Sequence record: MT446398.1
Length of the DNA stretch: 52,806 nucleotides
Source of the DNA: Escherichia virus TH24
Strand: one strand, 5' to 3'
Shown: piece after piece, positions 9,203-29,792 of the stretch
Numbering within the stretch: position 1 is the stretch's first letter
Layout: the number at the start of each line of letters is the position of its first letter
Notes under the pieces: model-generated
Told to the model about the DNA's origin: nothing
Database searches by the model: none
What the model saw: only the letters and a program-made list of their open reading frames with translations
Position numbers and translations under genes: made by a program

Positions 9203-10651
9203 ATGTCAATCCCAATTTCTGATTTAGTTCAGGTTGATATCGCAATCTCCCCGAACGCCATTGCGACCGATGGTTTTGGGCCATTGCTCTTTATGAGCAA
9301 AGAGTTTGTACCGACCGTTGATGTATATCCGGTTCGTTCCTATACCAGTTTGAAAGAAGTTCTCGCAGACTTCCCTGGTGGTGAGATTGCTAAAGCTGCT
9401 ACCTCTTGGTACTCGCAGAAGCCAACTCCGAAGACTTTCCTGGTTGGTGCTATCAAGTACGATACTTTGACTCCAGCAACTCCTGCCACTGTTACTGCTG
9501 CAACTGCTGCTGTATTGGCAACCATTAAGCTGGAAACTGCTGCAACCATGCAGTTAAGTGTTAGCGGTGTTCAGTATGTTACTGACCCGATTGATTTCTC
9601 TGCTGCTGCTGACTTCGAAGAAGTTGCAACTCTAGTAACTACTGCACTATCTTCTGTTGGTGCTGGCGTAACTGTTACCCAGGAAGCTGGCAAGTTCAAG
9701 CTGACCACTTCTGCAACTGGCATCAACGCAACTATCAGCAACGTTGGTGGTAAAGTTGGTGAAGTGTTGAAGCTGCAATCTTCTGACAGTGCAGTTATTG
9801 TTGCTGGTAAGAACGAGCTATCCATCTCTTCCGACCTGTCTAATATTGCAGACGCTCCATTCAACTTCTTCTATGTAGGCCTTGACCGCCAGTATCGTGG
9901 CAAAACCTCTCCAGTAGACAACCAAATGTCTGTGGCGAAGTGGTGTGAAGCATCCAGCAAAGTATTTGGCTGGGGTGATAACGACAAGAACATTCTTATC
10001 AACGGCACTGATAACAGCTTCCGTCGTGCTAAGAACCAGAACCTGCGTAACACTCTGTGTGTTTACGATGCTTCTGCGAATGGTGATGAATATCCGGAAA
10101 TTTCTATCCTGGGTCGTGCATCAACTGTTAACTTTAACGTTGCAAACTCTGTTCTTATTCTGGCATACAAGAAAGGTCCAGGTATCGCCACTGCTGACCT
10201 GTCTTCTGGTCAGGTAAGTGCGCTGCTTTCTTGTGGTGGTAACGCATTCATTTCTGTTGCTGGCAACGTAATGTTCTACAACGGTCGTATGGCTGACGGC
10301 ACATGGTTCGACTCCGTACAAGGTGTTGAATGGCTGACTCAGAAAGTTCGACTGAACGTGTTCAACTTGTTCTACACTTCCACTACCAAGATTCCTTGGA
10401 CGGACACTGGTGTAGCAATGGTTAACCAGCAAGTAACTCTGGCGCTTGAACTCGCTAAGACTAACGGCCTCATTGCCCCTGGCTTTGATAACGAAGGTGT
10501 CTTCTATCCAGAAGGCTACAAAGTTATCTCTACTCCGTTAGAACTCTTGCAGTCGCAGAAGGGTGAACGTATTTGGGAAGGTACTTCCTTTATTGCTATC
10601 GGTTCCGGTGCAATCCAGGGTGCTGTAATCTCTGGCAACTTCATTCAGTAA
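9203..10651 (+). CDS. Tail sheath protein (putative)
   Basis: 482 aa, immediately upstream of tube, chaperone and tape-measure genes. Confidence 0.55.
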   Translation: MSIPISDLVQVDIAISPNAIATDGFGPLLFMSKEFVPTVDVYPVRSYTSLKEVLADFPGGEIAKAATSWYSQKPTPKTFLVGAIKYDTLTPATPATVTAATAAVLATIKLETAATMQLSVSGVQYVTDPIDFSAAADFEEVATLVTTALSSVGAGVTVTQEAGKFKLTTSATGINATISNVGGKVGEVLKLQSSDSAVIVAGKNELSISSDLSNIADAPFNFFYVGLDRQYRGKTSPVDNQMSVAKWCEASSKVFGWGDNDKNILINGTDNSFRRAKNQNLRNTLCVYDASANGDEYPEISILGRASTVNFNVANSVLILAYKKGPGIATADLSSGQVSALLSCGGNAFISVAGNVMFYNGRMADGTWFDSVQGVEWLTQKVRLNVFNLFYTSTTKIPWTDTGVAMVNQQVTLALELAKTNGLIAPGFDNEGVFYPEGYKVISTPLELLQSQKGERIWEGTSFIAIGSGAIQGAVISGNFIQ

Positions 10652-10660
10652 GGGTGAACA

Positions 10661-11116
10661 GTGAAGCAATATTCGTTTTATAATACAGACCTCCTGATTG
10701 ACGGTGCTCGTGTAGACGGTTTTCAGGCTGGACAATCTGTAATTACGGCACGCTACAACGTGCCACAGCATGTTCCTGTCATGGATGCATACGGCAAACT
10801 TGCTGTAGCAACCACTGCCGACCAGTCTGGGGTTATCACTTTCCCACTGCTGCAAACGGCAGACTGGAACGAAATCCTTTACCAACGTGCACAGCTTACT
10901 CGTGCAACTGGTTTGTCTGGTAACAAATCCCTCTGGGAACCTTTGCAGTTGCAATTGGTTGACAAGATGGGTGACGTACTGGTTAACGGTGTCAACGGTG
11001 CAATTCTGCAACAGCCAGCAATCGTTCGTGGTGTAACCTTCACTTCGAATATGTGGGCTGTGTTTGTAGAACGCCTCACCATCGTAACTGGCCAGTATCC
11101 AGAAATCGGCGTTTAA
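10661..11116 (+). CDS. Tail tube protein (putative)
   Basis: 151 aa between sheath and chaperone genes; GTG start with AGGGTGA RBS. Confidence 0.5.
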   Translation: MKQYSFYNTDLLIDGARVDGFQAGQSVITARYNVPQHVPVMDAYGKLAVATTADQSGVITFPLLQTADWNEILYQRAQLTRATGLSGNKSLWEPLQLQLVDKMGDVLVNGVNGAILQQPAIVRGVTFTSNMWAVFVERLTIVTGQYPEIGV

Positions 11117-11130
11117 TATAAGGTAAGAGC

Positions 11131-11589
11131 ATGGCTTGTGAACTTCGCCAACGCGAGTTGCAAGCCGACTCTGGTGAGATAGTTTTGGTTGGTACACGAC
11201 AACTCGGTGCCAGCCAAGCCCTTGACCTCCAAGTCGAGCTTGTTCAGAAACTCGGTATTTCGATATTCCCATTCGTTGAGAACAAATATAACTTTGCAGA
11301 CATTATTCATTTGATGCAGCAGGGTGGAACTCATACGGAAGTAACAGAATTAATTAAACGTGTAGTGTGTATGGCGACCATTGATGGTGTCGAAGTTAAT
11401 CCACGCACTATGCAGATGAAGTACAACGGCAATTTAATGCTCATGCACCATGTGTTTGCATTTGTTCTTGAATCGAACTTCCTTGATTTTTTCAAGCAAG
11501 GGCTCGAACTCAACGAACGCAGACAATTGGAGGCGGTGGAAGCATCCAAAATGGCCGAGCAGAAGAATTCGAGTCCGGAAACGATTTAA
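11131..11589 (+). CDS. Tail assembly chaperone (short, unshifted product)
   Basis: 152 aa between tube and tape-measure genes; contains slippery TTTTTTC at 11487-11493. Confidence 0.55.
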   Translation: MACELRQRELQADSGEIVLVGTRQLGASQALDLQVELVQKLGISIFPFVENKYNFADIIHLMQQGGTHTEVTELIKRVVCMATIDGVEVNPRTMQMKYNGNLMLMHHVFAFVLESNFLDFFKQGLELNERRQLEAVEASKMAEQKNSSPETI

Positions 11590-11765
11590 CTCAGAAGTTC
11601 CCGGAAATAAAATACTTCCTGCACCGTCCTGTAATAGAGGACAGTTCTCTCTGTTCTCTTAAAGAACTCTCGGACGGGACCTACTCTATTATGGATTTGT
11701 TAACTTTCCACGCAATACTTGATTTGCGTAATGAACTAAAACCTAAAGAAGAAGACAATGGCTAA
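11487..11765 (+). CDS. Tail assembly chaperone -1 frameshift extension
   Basis: The -1 frame has TGA at 11484-11486, then stays open 93 codons from the T_TTT_TTC heptamer to TAA 11763-11765, spanning the apparent intergenic gap and overlapping the next ATG. Confidence 0.5.
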   Translation, partial: FFQARARTQRTQTIGGGGSIQNGRAEEFESGNDLTQKFPEIKYFLHRPVIEDSSLCSLKELSDGTYSIMDLLTFHAILDLRNELKPKEEDNG

Positions 11766-14700
11766 GAACTTAAAAGATTTAATGAAGCTATCCGAGGCCG
11801 AACTAATCGGCATGGGTGCTCAGTACGGTCTGTCCTTCAATCCTGGTATGCGCAAACGAGATATGGCCCAGCAACTTGAATCGAGTGCTGCGTCAGGTTG
11901 GATGGAAACAAATTCACAGCTTTTGGGCGAACCAGATTCCCAGATGTATGAGGATGAAACTTCATACGGGACTTCTGATATGATTTCAGATGCAGCACAT
12001 GTAGCACAGATGATTTCTGGCGCTGGGCTGGCTGAAACATTCCATGCTGCAATGAACGGACCAGGACACCATGTAGAAGCAGTTCACGCATACATGGAAC
12101 AACTTGGTGTATCCACTGATGATGTTTGGATGCACATGCCTAAAGCCAACCCCAACAAGCCGGAAGGTCATTGGGGAATGCTTAACTCGTACATGCGAGA
12201 TACTCTTGCAGGTCATCAAGATATAATGCCTGAACTTGCCGGACACTACACCGGTAATATTATGGATGAATATTCCACAAACCGTGGAGATATTGCCAAG
12301 TCATTTGGTTATCTTGCTCACATGTATGTTGACCGTGAACAATACGACAACCCAGACCGCTATGCACGAGATGTTTATCGTGTAGCCAAACGTTTAGAAT
12401 CAGAATTACCGCAAAACTTCCGAGAAGTTGCTGCCGTATCTGCAATGAATGTAGGAAATAAGTCGGGGCCAAAACTTTCATACATGGATTCGTTGCCTCA
12501 ACTTGGCTCTGAATCTGTTGTTGGTGGGATTCAGCATCCCCGTCAACCTCTTAACGCATCTGGTTTACCTCTTGGTTCGTTTGGTGGCGGCATTAAGGCT
12601 GAATATTCTTTATCTGCATCCTTATCTGGTTCTCCAGGTTGGTCTGATGCAAGCAAAACGCTCTACCAAGATGTTTCTGGCGTAGTTAAATCTGCGGCAA
12701 AGGTTTATTCTGGTGGTGCTGAAAGAGGAATGAATGCATATCGCACTCAATCTTCTGACAGAGATTTAATCCTGGACTCTGCTTCTCGTTATGCAGACAT
12801 TGCAGATGTTCGTTCCGGTTACGATAACCTTAAGAAAGATATTGGTGACGACCCTCGATACTCTGGTTCATCTATTCGTGGCGTTCTTGAGAATGCTCAC
12901 CAATATAATGAGGCAGAAGTCGCTCGAACATTCGACCCTGCTGAACGTTTAAGGAATACTGGACCTGTAGAACTGAGTCCCTCTACAGAGTTTCTTGCAC
13001 AACTTGATTCTCCAACAAGTTGGAACTCTGCTCGCGCCCGTCGCGAGAGCATTGCTATATCTAATTTGGACTCTGCTCCACAACCAGCTCCGCAAGAAGG
13101 TCCAATCCGTTATCACAACATGGAACAGGGCACTCAGGAATGGTTAGACTTCCGCAAGCAATATGACATTACTGGCTCAACTGTCGGTTCATTTCTTGGT
13201 AACAATGAATATACTCGACCTTGGGCTGCAATGGTTGATAAAATTGGCCTACAACGCGGAAAGGGGCCAAGTGAATTTACCCAACGAATGTTCGAAGCAG
13301 GTCATCGGACGGAAGAAGTTGCTCGTAACCGTGTCGCCAAAGAGTTTGGATTCGACATTGAGCAAGCTGGCGCAATAACAAATGACAATTATCCGTCGTT
13401 CATGTATTCCCCAGATGGCCTTATCGGTGATGACGCGATTTGGGAACACAAGAACCCTGAAAGGGCTAAGAAGTTTTCTAACCTATCTGCTGGTGAGCAT
13501 AAGGATTACCTCGACCAAATTCAATTTGGTATGCTTGTATCTGGCCGTAGTCGTGCATTGTTCTCTCAGACAATCGGAGACAAGACGGTATCGGAATGGA
13601 TTGAGAAAGACGAGGGATGGTACGAACGCAACAAAGATAAGATTGATTCTACTATTGGTCGTCTTAATGCTGGTCGAGAGTTTGTTGAAGCTAATTCAGA
13701 CTTGTCCAATGATGATTTAATCAAAGGTGCTCGTGCTGCAATGACTGGCGATGGCATCTGGAAGGATGTTAAGCAGAAGTCAACGCGTGGTTACTCTGCC
13801 GCTGCTGGTACAGCCGATGACCCATTCATAGGCAACCGTACCAGTGTTGGAGTTGGTGAAGCCACAGCCTCTGCCGTAGGCTCTGACAGCACAACTGGCA
13901 ATGACCTGATGGCAGTATCTGTCAAGAAAGGTATCCTCGCTGCTCAGGAAGAAAACAAGCTGCGCGGACAAGATGCCGACTTCGGGGACAATGGTTGTCG
14001 TGGCGGTGGTGGCGGCTTCTGGGACACCTTCGATGCTAGTAGTTATGGCATTGGTGGAGGTGGTTCCGGTGGCGGTGGCGGTCGTGGTTGGAATACTGGT
14101 GGCAGCTTCTCAGATGACTTCGGTCGTGCTGGTGGCGCATTGGCTGCTGGCGTAGCTGGCGGTAGCATAGGCTCACTATCCAATGGTGCAATGAATGCCC
14201 TCATGATGACTCCGTGGGGACGTGTGGCGGGTATGGCTATCGGTGCTACCCAGATTGGTAACGAGGCGCTCGAAGGTCTGAACGATTTCTACGGAAACTC
14301 TTTAGACGCTGGTGTCAATAACCCTAACGAATATTCTTCCATGTCACAGGGCTTGGAGATGTTAGGGCTTAATCAGCAACAAGCTGGCCGACTCAATCGA
14401 ACCACACATAGTGCCTATAACACCCTCCTAAATGGCGACCCTAGTGGCGCTGTCAACATCGTTCAAGGAACCCGTGGTCTTATCACCATTGGCGACATTC
14501 GTGCGGCACAGGGCGACCCTGTAGCCTTAGCGCGGGTAATGCGTGAACGTGGTCAGGAGCGGGGCTGGAGTCAGGCTCGTATCGCTGGGGCTATGGAGAT
14601 GGCAGGTCTGGATGGCATGGCTCGCGCCTATGACCGCACAGATTACAGCGTGAACGAGGCTCAGGAGAACGTAAGCCGTGGAGCCAGCTCACAGTATGCC

Positions 14701-15435
14701 GATGGTATTGCACAGCTAGGAATAGCGCAGACGGAGCGTGCTGGGGTGCTGCCAGGATACGCAGTCCCGCAAGCTGCAATATCCTACGGGAGTTCATTTA
14801 TCGAAGCAGGTGGAGATGCGGCCAGAGTAGCGCGTACAGCGTCAAATGGTTTAGCTGATACTACCAGAACGGTATATGACTTTATCGCAGGAGAAGAGTC
14901 AGGGAACCGCGATTTGAACGCAGATGGTTCGGTGGTTACATCTCCGACTGGTGCCAAAGGTCGTATGCAGGTTCTTGATTCAACTTCCCGTGACCCAGGA
15001 TTCGGCGTTAAACCTGCACGTGATAACTCACTGGAAGAGCGTGCTCGCGTTGGTCGTGACTACTACGATGCAATGCTCAAGCGTTATAATGGTGACGCTG
15101 AGAAGGCTATGGCGGCGTATACGGATGGTGCTGGAACTGTTGATGATGCTATCAACAAACACGGAACCGACTGGCTCAATGCTGTTCCTCTACAGGCACA
15201 GAACCGCGTCAAGAAGTACCGTGAATGGGCTTCTCAGGGCGATTCTATTGCAGAAGGTGCAACTGGCTTCACCAGAAATGGACTGTCTTATGGTCAGACA
15301 CAGGCCACTGTAGTTAACGTTGAAGTCAAAGCTACTGTGAACAATAAGCAAGCGTCTGCAACCGTGTCAACTCCGAACGGTCAAACTGTTACCCAAACAA
15401 TCAACATGGGTAATGGTGCAATGGAACGTAGATAA
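11758..15435 (+). CDS. Tape-measure-position multidomain virion protein with YqaJ-like nuclease and lytic transglycosylase domains
   Basis: 1225 aa. EQGTQEWLDFRKQYDITGS...SPDGLIGDDAIWEHK...YLDQIQFGMLVSG (PD-(D/E)XK YqaJ-like, ~13120-13700); Gly-rich stretch; C-terminal GEESGNRD...GAKGRMQV...AAYTDG (SLT-like, ~14880-15250). Confidence 0.7.
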   Translation: MAKNLKDLMKLSEAELIGMGAQYGLSFNPGMRKRDMAQQLESSAASGWMETNSQLLGEPDSQMYEDETSYGTSDMISDAAHVAQMISGAGLAETFHAAMNGPGHHVEAVHAYMEQLGVSTDDVWMHMPKANPNKPEGHWGMLNSYMRDTLAGHQDIMPELAGHYTGNIMDEYSTNRGDIAKSFGYLAHMYVDREQYDNPDRYARDVYRVAKRLESELPQNFREVAAVSAMNVGNKSGPKLSYMDSLPQLGSESVVGGIQHPRQPLNASGLPLGSFGGGIKAEYSLSASLSGSPGWSDASKTLYQDVSGVVKSAAKVYSGGAERGMNAYRTQSSDRDLILDSASRYADIADVRSGYDNLKKDIGDDPRYSGSSIRGVLENAHQYNEAEVARTFDPAERLRNTGPVELSPSTEFLAQLDSPTSWNSARARRESIAISNLDSAPQPAPQEGPIRYHNMEQGTQEWLDFRKQYDITGSTVGSFLGNNEYTRPWAAMVDKIGLQRGKGPSEFTQRMFEAGHRTEEVARNRVAKEFGFDIEQAGAITNDNYPSFMYSPDGLIGDDAIWEHKNPERAKKFSNLSAGEHKDYLDQIQFGMLVSGRSRALFSQTIGDKTVSEWIEKDEGWYERNKDKIDSTIGRLNAGREFVEANSDLSNDDLIKGARAAMTGDGIWKDVKQKSTRGYSAAAGTADDPFIGNRTSVGVGEATASAVGSDSTTGNDLMAVSVKKGILAAQEENKLRGQDADFGDNGCRGGGGGFWDTFDASSYGIGGGGSGGGGGRGWNTGGSFSDDFGRAGGALAAGVAGGSIGSLSNGAMNALMMTPWGRVAGMAIGATQIGNEALEGLNDFYGNSLDAGVNNPNEYSSMSQGLEMLGLNQQQAGRLNRTTHSAYNTLLNGDPSGAVNIVQGTRGLITIGDIRAAQGDPVALARVMRERGQERGWSQARIAGAMEMAGLDGMARAYDRTDYSVNEAQENVSRGASSQYADGIAQLGIAQTERAGVLPGYAVPQAAISYGSSFIEAGGDAARVARTASNGLADTTRTVYDFIAGEESGNRDLNADGSVVTSPTGAKGRMQVLDSTSRDPGFGVKPARDNSLEERARVGRDYYDAMLKRYNGDAEKAMAAYTDGAGTVDDAINKHGTDWLNAVPLQAQNRVKKYREWASQGDSIAEGATGFTRNGLSYGQTQATVVNVEVKATVNNKQASATVSTPNGQTVTQTINMGNGAMERR

Positions 15436-15469: not shown

Positions 15470-15510
15470 AATATTATTTGAATATGTATTAATTTCAATA
15501 GGTGTATAAC

Positions 15511-16608
15511 ATGCCGTGGATGCGTGGTATAGAGATAGTTGTCTCAAGAAAGGATGACCCAGAAACCAAGTCTGTGTTTAAAGCGCACAAGATTGATTTC
15601 ACCATCCGGTCAACTGTTGGTTGGCCAGCAGATACTGCCGATATTACTCTATACAACCTGGGCGTCGATGAAGTTAAGTTCCTTCAAGACAAGTCTTATG
15701 GTGATATGTATGTTGAAATTCGTGCAGGATACTATGAAGACGAGCGTATTGTTAATGCTGGTCATAGTAAGTATCAAAGCCCAAGCCAGGCTGATTCGGA
15801 AGTAAGGGTTGAAATTGGCCAAGTCCTGCCAACAATCTTCTCTGGCATAGTAACAAACGCAGTTGGATTCAGACGTCCTCCAGAACACGTAACACAATTG
15901 TTTTGTATCTCCAAAGCCTATGGTGCATCTACTGAATTTACTCAGATGAAAGATATTCCAAATGGTGCAACTTTGGAAGACGCCATTCGTTCTATGTGTG
16001 CAGACTATGGCTTCTCCACCATTTCATCTTTTGGTGTTGAAGAATCTGTATTCAAATCTCAGTTGAAGTTGGGTCGAGTATTCCATGACACATTCTTGGA
16101 AGAGTTCCGAACCCTGCTTGGAGAATACAATTTACTATTCTCTGTAACCACTGGTGAGATTCAAATCTTCCCAGATACCTACGGCAACAAAGATGCTGTA
16201 GATAGAATGTCAAAAGACCGTGAACCAATCAAGCTGGATGCCAACCAGGTTATTGGAAACCCTATTGCTGGAATTGCAACATACTCCTTGAATACATTTC
16301 TGAATGCCAGTTATCAACCAGGTATGATTCTGGATGTATCTCCTTTGCTGGGAGAACAATTGCTGGCGAATGGTGTTACTTCTGTAACTGGAAAGGGTGT
16401 TGTTCTTAACACAGACCAAAGCGTGTTCCGTTGGGCGATGGAAGATAAATACTTCATCACAGAAGTTGTCCACCATGGCTCAACCCATGAAACTGTTTTC
16501 CAAACAACCATCACTGCAATGCTTGGTGGCAATACTGCAATGGGCGGTAAAGAAGCGGCTTGGCAGCAAGCCTACTTAAACAGTGGAATGGCTATGGAGT
16601 CTTTCTAA
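15511..16608 (+). CDS. Tail or baseplate protein (putative)
   Basis: ATG 15511 with AGGTG RBS (track start 15502 is GTG); first gene after the tape-measure-position gene. Confidence 0.5.
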   Translation: MPWMRGIEIVVSRKDDPETKSVFKAHKIDFTIRSTVGWPADTADITLYNLGVDEVKFLQDKSYGDMYVEIRAGYYEDERIVNAGHSKYQSPSQADSEVRVEIGQVLPTIFSGIVTNAVGFRRPPEHVTQLFCISKAYGASTEFTQMKDIPNGATLEDAIRSMCADYGFSTISSFGVEESVFKSQLKLGRVFHDTFLEEFRTLLGEYNLLFSVTTGEIQIFPDTYGNKDAVDRMSKDREPIKLDANQVIGNPIAGIATYSLNTFLNASYQPGMILDVSPLLGEQLLANGVTSVTGKGVVLNTDQSVFRWAMEDKYFITEVVHHGSTHETVFQTTITAMLGGNTAMGGKEAAWQQAYLNSGMAMESF

Positions 16609-27278: not shown

Positions 27279-27300
27279 CGATTAAATGGGAGAAGAGATT

Positions 27301-27325
27301 CGATGCGTTAGCGTCGTTTCTCTTT
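27301..27325 (+). terminator. Rho-independent terminator after nrdB
   Basis: CGATGC-gtta-GCGTCG stem-loop followed by TTTCTCTTT. Confidence 0.5.
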
Positions 27326-27533
27326 GAGCTAGAATAAAATAAGTAAGTTTCCAATATTACTTATTCCCAATATTGCTACAATATTAAGAGTAATATTAGG
27401 AATGCGTAAAGTTCAAAACCAAATGGTACATGGTCGGTCAACTGTATCTAGCCGGAATTTGTTCGAACAGAAGTCCGACTATGTTATAAAATTTTTATAT
27501 AATTTTTTTTTTAATTTAAATATTGTTACAGAA

Positions 27534-27580
27534 TTAATGAGACTAGAATTGTTACGATATTAACGAGACTAGAATTGTGG
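27534..27580 (+). repeat. Tandem direct repeat (TAAYGAGACTAGAATTGT x2) beside an AT-rich tract; candidate early promoters or origin
   Basis: Two copies 26 bp apart, each with a TTGTTA...TAGAAT arrangement; preceded by a ~40-bp A/T tract (27488-27525). Confidence 0.45.
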
Positions 27581-27769
27581 CAATATTATAATTTTATTTT
27601 TGGGCCAGCGGGGAGGGGAAGCCCAACGTCCTATCGGACTTAAATACGGTCCCTACCCCAACTTTTTCCTGTAGCCTATCGGCTTTCAAACAACTCCAAG
27701 TTAGGCGCTTCGCTTATGAGTCAAGGTCAAAGTCTCCGTGCTGTTGTATCAATGGCACAGGTTTGTGGT

Positions 27770-27784
27770 ATTAGTTGGACGTGA
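27770..27784 (+). promoter_or_regulatory. Variant of the conserved ATTAGTTGGATGTGA motif upstream of the RNAP gene
   Basis: ATTAGTTGGACGTGA, one mismatch to the core, 77 nt upstream of the RNAP ATG; a TATAAT hexamer lies at 27806-27811. Confidence 0.3.
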
Positions 27785-27860
27785 ATTGTGTAATGGCTAC
27801 GCTATTATAATCCGTTTCATTCAAATCATACACAATCTTGGAGACTTACAAATGACTACT

Positions 27861-29792
27861 ATCACTACTCAAACTATCAAATCTGTTGTTCCTGCTATCA
27901 CTGCTCTGGTATACCGTGCCAAAGAGAAGCAGAACTATATGCAGCCTCAGACTTGTGCTATTGCTGCCTTAGCCATATTCAAGATGATGACGTCTTTCAC
28001 GCGTGATGACGTTATTCCGGCTATCTCGATGGTTGAACTGGCTTCTGCTTCCATTGCTGATGCCAACCGCTACAACAACGACTTAAAGTCAATGCACTAT
28101 GTTGACCCAGCTATCAACCTGATTGGTCTGGCTAAACACTTCGGTTTCATCACCATGAACGAGGACAAATCGTTCCAGATGACTGATGCATGGGTTGAAC
28201 TGGTTACAACCAAAGATACCTCAGTTCCATTCACTGAGCGTGTAACAAATGAATCTCGTCGTAAGCCTTTCGTTAAAGGTGGCAAAGTTAAGCCATCCAA
28301 GACTCTGAAAGCTGCGATTGAATTCCTGCAAGATACTGAATATCACGTTGATGCAACAATGGTTAAGGTTATCTCTTCCATGTTAGAACAACGTACATTT
28401 GGTGGCTTACAGATGCCAGAAGCAATCCAGACTGAACTCCATGTTTGGAACAATGCTGTAGCAATGGTTGGTCAGGACACTCTGTTCTCTGACTACTTTG
28501 CTGATAACCGTGGTCGTCTGTATCATGTAGCATGTGCTGGTCCTAACCCACAATCATCTGACTTTGCTCGTTGCCTGTATTCCCACAATGTTGAGAACAC
28601 TGTGAGCAAGTTTAATGCTGATGGTTCAACAACTCTGGCATACAACATGTTCATGCTTGAGCTGGAAGATATCGCTGGTGGAGACTGGACTTCTGCAAAA
28701 CGTTTAACTTATGTTGCTCAGAATCCAGCTGGTTCACTTGCTCGCATGTTGAATATGCCTAAAGGTGAGCGTCCTTCTAAGCCATTCACTTATGTTCGTC
28801 TGGCTCTGGATTGGTTCAAGTTTGAGACTACAGGTGAGTGCGATTCTCGTGTAGGCTTTGGCTTAGATGCTAAATGTTCTGGTACTCAATACTTGGCATT
28901 CATTGCTGGTAATATGGAGATGGCTCGTGCAACAGGTCTGGTTGATTCTGAGACTAAAGCATCTGACCCATACCAGTTATCTCTTCGTGAACTGTTGAAG
29001 TTGCTTGACCGTTCTTCAATGAAACCATCCGCTGAAATTATGGATGAATTCTTGAATCCGAAAGCTGGTCGTAAGTTTATCAAAACTCCATACATGGCTA
29101 TCCAATATGGTGGTGGTAAAGCTGCACTAACTGGTTCTTCTGATTTCATCGCATACATGACAGAAGCTCTCCAGATTCCTATGGAGAAAGCTGATGCATT
29201 TGCTGAACTTTGTGTAGAAGCAATCCATAACGCATTGGGTGCTAAGATTAACATGTTCATCGAGAAAGCTGCTGATGCTGCATTTGCTCGTTGTGTTGAA
29301 CTCAACAAAGAGTACATCACATATAAGCACACTGATGGCCAAGTTGTAATGAAGCCTTGCTTCCCATCTCGTGATGTTTGTGATGCGTTCAGCATTCGTG
29401 TTGACTCTCAAACTCGTGTCATCTTTGGTCAGATTCAGGAGAATAAGCCTTGGACCATTCGTGAGTCCAATCCAACTAAGGAAGAATTCAAGCGTACTTT
29501 CGTTGTTAACTACATTCAAGGTATTGACGCATTGGTTGCTCGTACTGTTGCAGTCAAAGCTAAAGAAGCTGGTCTTCGTGGCTTTACTTCAATTCACGAT
29601 TGCTTCCGTTGCTGCTTGGCTGATGCTCCTAAAATGATGGAAGTGATTCGTTCTGCTTATATTGAAATCTTTGTTCATAATAATCAGTTTGAATCTTTGT
29701 CTAAGCAACTTGGTGGCATCAACATGTACCATGAGAACATCGTAACAGAAGAGCTTCTGATGAGCGAACACGCTTACTATTTCTGTCAATAA
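27861..29792 (+). CDS. Single-subunit (T7-like) DNA-dependent RNA polymerase, compact form
   Basis: GFGLDAKCSGTQ (motif A Asp), RKFIKTPYMAIQYGGG (motif B), FTSIHDCF (motif C Asp). ATG 27861 with GGAGA RBS; 643 aa versus 883 in T7. Confidence 0.8.
   Translation: MTTQTIKSVVPAITALVYRAKEKQNYMQPQTCAIAALAIFKMMTSFTRDDVIPAISMVELASASIADANRYNNDLKSMHYVDPAINLIGLAKHFGFITMNEDKSFQMTDAWVELVTTKDTSVPFTERVTNESRRKPFVKGGKVKPSKTLKAAIEFLQDTEYHVDATMVKVISSMLEQRTFGGLQMPEAIQTELHVWNNAVAMVGQDTLFSDYFADNRGRLYHVACAGPNPQSSDFARCLYSHNVENTVSKFNADGSTTLAYNMFMLELEDIAGGDWTSAKRLTYVAQNPAGSLARMLNMPKGERPSKPFTYVRLALDWFKFETTGECDSRVGFGLDAKCSGTQYLAFIAGNMEMARATGLVDSETKASDPYQLSLRELLKLLDRSSMKPSAEIMDEFLNPKAGRKFIKTPYMAIQYGGGKAALTGSSDFIAYMTEALQIPMEKADAFAELCVEAIHNALGAKINMFIEKAADAAFARCVELNKEYITYKHTDGQVVMKPCFPSRDVCDAFSIRVDSQTRVIFGQIQENKPWTIRESNPTKEEFKRTFVVNYIQGIDALVARTVAVKAKEAGLRGFTSIHDCFRCCLADAPKMMEVIRSAYIEIFVHNNQFESLSKQLGGINMYHENIVTEELLMSEHAYYFCQ

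Follow-up and report, generated by a model that had tools for sequence, protein, structure and literature searches.

A predicted -1 ribosomal frameshift in the tail assembly chaperone gene of Escherichia virus TH24 and related Chaseviridae

We analyzed a 52,806-bp stretch of DNA from Escherichia virus TH24 (MT446398.1), called the window below, with attention to its gene for a tail assembly chaperone (TAC) and to a predicted -1 frameshift by which that gene would also specify a longer protein. DNA searches identify the window as a phiEcoM-GJ1-like myovirus of the family Chaseviridae. The chaperone gene lies at positions 11131-11589 on the plus strand, as do all the genes named below, and its short, zero-frame product of 152 aa matches Pfam PF21822 Phage_TAC_15 over residues 23-126 (54.1 bits against a cut-off of 22, E=2.9e-14) as well as PHROG 11820, a tail assembly chaperone family (E=1.4e-57). 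Upstream are a tail sheath gene (9203-10651; PHROG 205 tail sheath, E=1.4e-92; DUF3383) and, directly before the chaperone gene, a 151-aa gene in the tail tube position (10661-11116; PHROG 280 virion structural protein, E=2.4e-29), whose homologs are labelled tail tube protein in the PYps23T, Mangalitsa and PP101-type records. Downstream are a 1225-aa gene in the tape-measure position (11758-15435; PHROG 19855), labelled tape measure protein in the PYps23T, PP101 and 4HA13 records, and a baseplate hub gene (15502-16608; PHROG 196). The two family matches and the synteny from sheath and tube to tape-measure position bear out the chaperone identity that an earlier, sequence-only reading of the window had given to the zero-frame open reading frame (ORF). 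The order sheath, tube-position gene, TAC, -1 ORF, tape-measure-position gene and baseplate hub is the layout expected of a frameshift of the lambda G/GT type.

Between the zero-frame stop of the chaperone, whose last base is 11589, and the start of the next gene at 11758 lies an apparent intergenic gap of 168 nt (11590-11757, plus strand) that is coding in the -1 frame. Frames were computed from the ORF 11131-11589, whose codons start at positions equal to 1 modulo 3. In this register the heptamer T_TTT_TTC at 11487-11493 (plus strand) is read as GA[T TTT TTC], or D-F-F, and so stands in the exact X_XXY_YYZ register of a slippery site. A TGA at 11484-11486, directly 5' of the heptamer on the same strand, closes the -1 frame, which can therefore be entered only at or downstream of the T-run. 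Past the TGA the -1 frame has 92 sense codons and then a TAA at 11763-11765 (93 codons with the stop), so that it ends 8 nt inside the next gene and overlaps its ATG. Counted from the slip, the -1 extension spans 11493-11765 (plus strand; 90 sense codons and TAA), and the predicted long product, join(11131..11493,11493..11765) on the plus strand, has 211 aa (about 24 kDa) with the junction peptide ...NFLDFF/QARARTQ.... The sequence-only reading had placed the heptamer in the chaperone zero frame, with the TGA immediately 5' of it, a 93-codon open -1 frame and an 8-nt overlap with the next gene; the register and every coordinate proved exact, and our translation agrees with the junction FLDFF/QARARTQ that it gave. 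The segment 11493-11589 (plus strand) would be dual coding: its zero frame specifies the last 31 residues of the short form, and its -1 frame would supply the long form with a linker that is predicted to be disordered. The predicted tryptic peptide across the junction of the long form is YNGNLMLMHHVFAFVLESNFLDFFQAR, that marking the short form is YNGNLMLMHHVFAFVLESNFLDFFK, and an example of a peptide predicted from the extension is YFLHRPVIEDSSLCSLK.

How unusual is this arrangement within the window itself? Shuffling the 279-nt stretch left the -1 frame free of stops in 261 of 100,000 trials (0.0026); upstream of the heptamer the same frame has 11 stops in 360 nt. T_TTT_TTC is the sole in-register XXXYYYZ heptamer in the chaperone gene, and the slip site holds the only in-frame TTTTTTN among the 14,918 codons of the window's long open frames. 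On both strands of the whole 52.8 kb, TTTTTTC occurs once, against 17.9 +/- 4.4 expected from dinucleotide-preserving shuffles, which means that the genome avoids the heptamer everywhere but at the slip site.

The comparison drew on 17 annotated GenBank loci and 44 loci from IMG/VR, which make 46 distinct loci after identical sequences are collapsed; the GenBank set spans Cleopatravirinae, Nefertitivirinae, Shantouvirus, one unclassified myovirus and Aaphi23. T_TTT_TTC, or in two cases T_TTT_TTT, stands in the zero frame at the homologous position of all 17 GenBank loci, and in each of them the -1 frame stays open for 80-113 codons past the heptamer, up to the next gene. T_TTT_TTN followed by an open -1 frame is likewise present in 41 of the 44 IMG/VR loci. 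Counted over the distinct loci, 39 have TTTTTTC, four have TTTTTT followed by G, A or T, and three are without a T6 heptamer, T_TTT_TTN thus being kept in 43 of 46. In most loci the T6 at the slip site is the sole T6 run in about 3.2 kb, and this includes loci of 57-65% GC, where TTT makes up only 19-43% of the Phe codons and the T6 is still kept. The codon before the T-run (GAT or GCT) ends in T in every locus that has the run. By this comparison of sequences, the T-run is constrained at the nucleotide level.

The gap itself, which measures 155-212 nt in the 46 distinct loci, is free of stops throughout when read in the -1 frame, while the two remaining frames hold 188 and 203. Interruption of this frame by stops in relatives had been named beforehand as a result that would refute the prediction, and the prediction passed the test. 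Conservation of the -1 ORF in related phages, also put forward as a check, was confirmed by tblastn, which found the -1 peptide in 128 phage records with a reach to phages of Erwinia, Pectobacterium, Proteus, Pantoea, Aeromonas, Shewanella and Vibrio; the extensions in the Aeromonas, Shewanella and Vibrio phages are 31-45% identical. Divergence was analyzed on an ungapped alignment of the window with phiEcoM-GJ1. Differences in the gap fall 13/9/29 on the three codon positions of the -1 frame, and the ratio of synonymous to non-synonymous differences is 20:15 in this frame and 3:31 and 2:30 in the others; Mangalitsa and 2KOFFS have a comparable -1-frame synonymous pattern. The segment 11487-11588 differs at 11 of 102 nt versus 51 of 168 nt in the gap, a lower divergence that is expected for dual coding, and the zero-frame stop and the short-form C-terminus are likewise conserved. 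As judged from these substitution patterns, the -1 frame is the only one in which the gap is constrained as protein-coding sequence. The sequence-only reading had called the gap probably coding, a view now backed by the synonymous bias and the lack of stops, both found in this frame alone. An ORF of 70 aa in the +1 frame (11450-11662) was also considered and rejected as not coding: stops are numerous in this frame in relatives, and synonymous differences stand to non-synonymous ones at about 2-3 to 30.

What would the -1 frame encode? Extension residues ~31-82 (11583-11738, plus strand) are predicted to form a conserved small helical domain that corresponds to PHROG 4364 and probably to DUF6889. 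In an alignment of 12 extensions, a variable linker with many Gly, Arg and Ala residues precedes the block FP.I.YFLHRPVIEDSSLC.L.EL.DGTYS..DLL.FH.ILDLR, with R47, C56, L61, G64, D70, H75 and D79 invariant in the 12 sequences. Pfam PF21829 (DUF6889) is matched by all 12 aligned relatives (best E=1.9e-9); the window's own extension scores 13.3 bits against this family (E=0.07), below the cut-off of 23.9, and matches PHROG 4364, of unknown function, at E=2.1e-17. AlphaFold2 (AF2) predicts extension residues 1-30 to be disordered (predicted local distance difference test score, pLDDT, <50) and gives the domain at 31-82 a pLDDT of 70-89, with predicted helices at 32-35, 37-49, 56-61 and 66-82. A Foldseek search of BFVD with the extension model returned its own family only.

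The chaperone part was also modelled (AF2, pLDDT 82), and its terminal long helix comprises residues 102-145. According to this model, a shift at residue 121 would swap the distal half of the helix for the linker and domain. Foldseek matches of the chaperone model to the Protein Data Bank (PDB) were 5ir0 (the best, E=0.025), YqbN (3klu, E=0.33) and the HK97 TAC (2ob9, E=1.4, TMt 0.42); all lie above the significance bar of E<=0.001 and are hence weak. It is of note that 5ir0, ORF19 of a PICI-like element of Vibrio cholerae, outranks 2ob9 and 3klu with a Foldseek probability of 1.00 and a TMt of 0.62; going by the model, this protein may be a TAC-like protein of a phage satellite. Sequence searches of solved structures gave no match to the chaperone or the extension at E<=10.

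The anatomy of the locus, the conserved heptamer, the constraint on the -1 frame and, as described below, the scarcity of start codons and the homology to an annotated frameshift pair support the -1 frameshift predicted by the sequence-only reading; that the slip is a ribosomal event, how efficient it is and what the two products do are points that we infer. On the strength of these sequence comparisons, the TAC gene very probably uses a -1 programmed ribosomal frameshift of the lambda G/GT type to make a long form of 211 aa. Most ribosomes would read 11131-11589 and yield the 152-aa short chaperone. A minority would slip when the P site (UUU, 11488-90) and A site (UUC, 11491-93) are each occupied by tRNA-Phe; the two tRNAs would re-pair one base back on UUU UUU (11487-92), decoding would resume at CAA (11493), and the shifted reading would cross the gap to the TAA at 11763-65. 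The only tRNA-Phe of E. coli (anticodon GAA) decodes both UUU and UUC, so both tRNAs would re-pair fully after a -1 slip on U_UUU_UUC. The long form would consist of chaperone residues 1-121, a flexible linker of ~30 residues and a DUF6889 helical domain of ~50 residues. By analogy with lambda gpG and gpGT, the N-terminal part would serve as a coat on the tape-measure protein, and the tube protein would be brought in by the extension. Because no RNA stimulator is evident, the slip rate is probably low, constitutive and set by the heptamer alone, at ~0.1% to a few percent. The motif U_UU.U_UU.C gives >0.10% frameshifting in E. coli without stimulators (Sharma et al. 2014, PMC4066793); H_HH.U_UU.Y is among the most efficient classes, and U_UU.U_UU.C is used in insertion sequence (IS) elements (PMC4066793).

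Several observations weigh against a programmed ribosomal frameshift or limit the case for it. The RNA downstream of the heptamer is not stabilized relative to shuffled sequences (minimum free energy -22.4 versus a shuffle mean of -23.5 kcal/mol, z=+0.34), and RNAalifold with 12 relatives predicts no pairs. By these measures the site is without the stable or conserved structure 5-9 nt downstream that is expected of the stimulated class of -1 frameshifts (dnaX/IS3 type, which have a downstream hairpin or pseudoknot or an upstream Shine-Dalgarno (SD) sequence), and inspection of the 20 nt that precede the heptamer found no SD-like motif. Without a stimulatory structure the efficiency may be low, although lambda G/GT also has no stimulator. 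Whole-database protein searches with the 211-aa fusion and with the extension profile found no natural fusion of a TAC with DUF6889, only TACs of ~150 aa and extension fragments of 43-105 aa, and the literature yielded no protein-level evidence for a long form from the window phage or from any of the Chaseviridae. Nor could any resemblance of the extension to lambda T or P2 E' be detected: hmmscan at E<=1 returned DUF6889 and a stray DUF7188, and no match to the Pfam families of lambda gpT or P2 GpE. The register of the heptamer is also tied to the conserved D-F-F residues. Finally, three loci retain the -1 ORF without a perfect heptamer, namely L032, which has G_TTT_TTC, and L045 and L053, which have no canonical heptamer.

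Some of these divergent loci merit a description of their own. L045 (~1423-1487, GATTTGTTC) has an open, conserved -1 ORF and, two codons short of its chaperone stop, an A_AAA tetramer. The -1 ORF of L053 (~1450-1529, GATTTTATTTC) is open and conserved too, the canonical heptamer being absent from the homologous place. The G_TTT_TTC of L032 is at ~1498-1506, and L061 has a T9 run at 1434-1442. A different slip site or a different mechanism could operate in these four.

A T-run also permits transcriptional slippage, and sequence comparison cannot fully separate this from a ribosomal mechanism. Here an RNA polymerase, of the host or of the phage, would add one U at the T6 and so give rise to the same 211-aa fusion. 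We regard this as unlikely. In its favor, the site is a homopolymeric run; one of the window's genes is for a T7-type RNA polymerase (27738-29792; PF00940, E=2.7e-18); and longer runs occur in a few distant relatives (T7 in L016, L017 and L058, T9 in L061). UUUUUUU is avoided in all frames of E. coli genes, possibly because of such slippage (PMC4066793). Against this, the run has exactly six Ts in 39 of the 46 distinct loci. Efficient programmed transcriptional slippage generally takes place on runs of ~8-9 or more. L032 keeps the whole arrangement with only a T5, in which the U_UUC tetramer could still slip on the ribosome; the T-run is in the tandem-tRNA register in 43 of the 43 loci that have one; and the heptamer is a validated ribosomal -1 motif. 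That the phage's own T7-type RNA polymerase makes the long form, by a programmed +1 U insertion on the conserved T6, seems to us improbable, with in its favor the invariant length and position of the T-run, the failure to find an RNA stimulator and the few relatives with T7-T9. If it were true, the module of TAC_15 or TAC_9 with DUF6889, which spans the Chaseviridae, Aaphi23-like temperate phages and GC-rich uncultured myoviruses, would be a case of polymerase-level recoding in tail assembly.

Is the -1 ORF instead a small gene in its own right, translated alone from an internal or non-canonical start and never fused to the chaperone? Six records do call a separate gene (phiEcoM-GJ1 gp61, PM1_050, Myduc gp50, pAh6-C gp9, SppYZU05 gp10 and 2KOFFS_0042), and PHROG 4364 and Pfam DUF6889 were both built from stand-alone ORF calls. 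The annotated starts are inconsistent, however: the products measure 30-73 aa in the GenBank records and range from 43 to 105 aa database-wide. The stretch is left blank in MLP1, Fifi44, Berlingot, Y2, PVN03, VPs20, ZPAH14 and Mangalitsa. In the window's -1 frame there is no ATG, GTG or TTG before 11691, a position inside the conserved domain and downstream of its start; a start codon that precedes the domain is absent from 37 of the 46 distinct loci, and in just two is there one accompanied by an SD-like element. The frame is open back to the heptamer in every locus, despite a linker that is poorly conserved and variable in length, which would be unexplained if translation began further downstream. 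A scan of 10600-12000 for promoters and terminators gave chance-level counts and no sign of a separate transcription unit in the gap. An independent small gene is thus very improbable, and we rejected it for lack of start codons. That the open frame is a chance one in a non-coding spacer, or that a sequencing or assembly indel has split one gene, is effectively refuted on sequence grounds: all that speaks for it is the prior that short open frames arise by chance (for this stretch, the shuffle probability given above), and against it stand the third-position, synonymous-rich divergence in the -1 frame only, the absence of stops there, a peptide kept at 31-45% identity, the recurrence of T6 and the two-frame layout in dozens of independently sequenced genomes, and the conserved zero-frame stop and short-form C-terminus.

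No joined coding sequence (CDS) is present in any of the 15 annotated Chaseviridae records inspected, which include the RefSeq entries for phiEcoM-GJ1, PM1, Myduc, Mangalitsa, MLP1, Fifi44, SppYZU05, PVN03 and ZPAH14. The Mangalitsa record (L005, NC_048799.1) has the start of the tape-measure-position gene at locus position 1919, 222 nt downstream of the start at 1697 that is used in phiEcoM-GJ1, MLP1 and 2KOFFS, and this later start makes the apparent unannotated gap in that record larger. Likewise, no paper in the library searched connects Chaseviridae, phiEcoM-GJ1, DUF6889 or TTTTTTC with a chaperone frameshift.

The lambda G/GT -1 frameshift was reportedly worked out by Levin, Hendrix and Casjens (1993) and by Xu, Hendrix and Duda (2004, 2013, 2014). 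Its mechanism and wide conservation are described in PMC5009743, with a lambda product ratio of 30:1 that results from low-level frameshifting. The frameshift that we predict resembles it in having overlapping frames between the major tail or tube gene and the tape-measure gene, a second frame without a start of its own, no RNA stimulator, and a long form composed of the shared N-terminal chaperone part and an added C-terminal domain. It differs in that the lambda heptamer is G_GGA_AAG and the window's is T_TTT_TTC, in that the window phage is a contractile-tailed myovirus, and in that its chaperone belongs to Phage_TAC_15 rather than to the lambda G family and its extension has no detectable likeness to lambda T. 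P2 E/E+E' and Mu-type phages share the contractile tail and a -1 frameshift between tube and tape-measure genes (PMC5009743); unlike P2, the window has no sequence-family match to GpE or to an E-type chaperone. The frameshift efficiency in P2 is reported to be two to three times that of lambda. The likeness to lambda G/GT and P2 E/E+E' drawn in the sequence-only reading therefore stands for the gene arrangement and the inferred logic of the system, and fails for the extension family.

The closest homologous precedent is ORF54/ORF54-54' of phage Aaphi23 (NC_004827), annotated as a CDS joined from two pieces. The genes around it follow the same order as in the window (sheath, structural protein, chaperone with extension, tape measure), ORF54 matches Phage_TAC_15 (E=8e-13), and its extension aligns to the window extension profile with an hhalign probability of 94.9% (E=4.7e-8). 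Both modules of this annotated frameshift pair are thus homologous to the two modules in the window, and a zero-frame heptamer, T_TTT_TTT, stands at the equivalent place. Aaphi23 differs in being temperate and outside the Chaseviridae, in having Phage_TAC_9 as its best Pfam family, and in an extension that is only ~29-35% identical. A second parallel comes from a TAC-N/TAC-NC -1 frameshift proposed for Vandenendeviridae (Pakpunavirus) and Andersonviridae, in which the motif GTTTTT is conserved (PMC12846349, Dec 2025). These systems too have a downstream stretch annotated as hypothetical or intergenic, a -1 frame that is uninterrupted even between divergent genomes and a conserved poly-T motif, and L032 among our relatives has exactly G_TTT_TTC. 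They belong to other families, however, and the motif in the window is a full X_XXY_YYZ; the Chaseviridae lie outside that paper's treatment here. The phenomenon is thus a textbook one, and what we did not find is any report of it for the Chaseviridae or any annotation of it in the Chaseviridae records inspected.

A few other features of the window should be recorded. It is 99% identical in DNA to TH23, TH28 and TH33, 97% to Yersinia phage PYps23T, 96.6% to MLP1 and ~71% to phiEcoM-GJ1, and it also encodes a terminase, a portal, a major capsid protein, a primase-helicase and a family A DNA polymerase. All its long ORFs are on the plus strand. Its 52,806 bp compare with 52,851 bp for TH33, 52,433 bp for TH23 and 51,940 bp for MLP1, and the window is probably the entire phage genome. 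An AT-rich intergenic region (27279-27737) separates the structural module from the RNA polymerase gene and contains the only other long T-run of the window, a T10 at 27503-27512, and two copies of a direct repeat with GAGACTAGAATTGT at ~27529-27590. This region may be a promoter or an origin. The tape-measure-position protein embeds a YqaJ/RecE-like exonuclease domain (Pfam YqaJ, E=4.7e-12, aa 461-597), with a match to the RecE-like exonuclease families PHROG 434/149 at aa ~432-643 (window ~13051-13686), and has a C-terminal SLT lytic transglycosylase domain at aa 1060-1136 (window ~14935-15165). A nuclease domain within a tape-measure-like virion protein is unusual, and the labels given to this gene in relatives include tape measure, tail fiber, tail tube initiator, exonuclease and endonuclease.

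The predicted frameshift leaves the general picture of phage tail assembly unchanged, and its value is first of all one of annotation: it would remove an apparent gap of 168 nt and replace a spurious small hypothetical gene with an arbitrary start. Since several phages of this group that infect Erwinia, Pectobacterium, Aeromonas and E. coli are in development for biocontrol or therapy, such structural annotation would be useful. DUF6889 and PHROG 4364 would acquire a role, as the C-terminal domain of the long chaperone isoform. A U_UUU_UUC without a stimulator, conserved across genomes of 38%-65% GC, would moreover be a model for how a bare heptamer can set a protein ratio.

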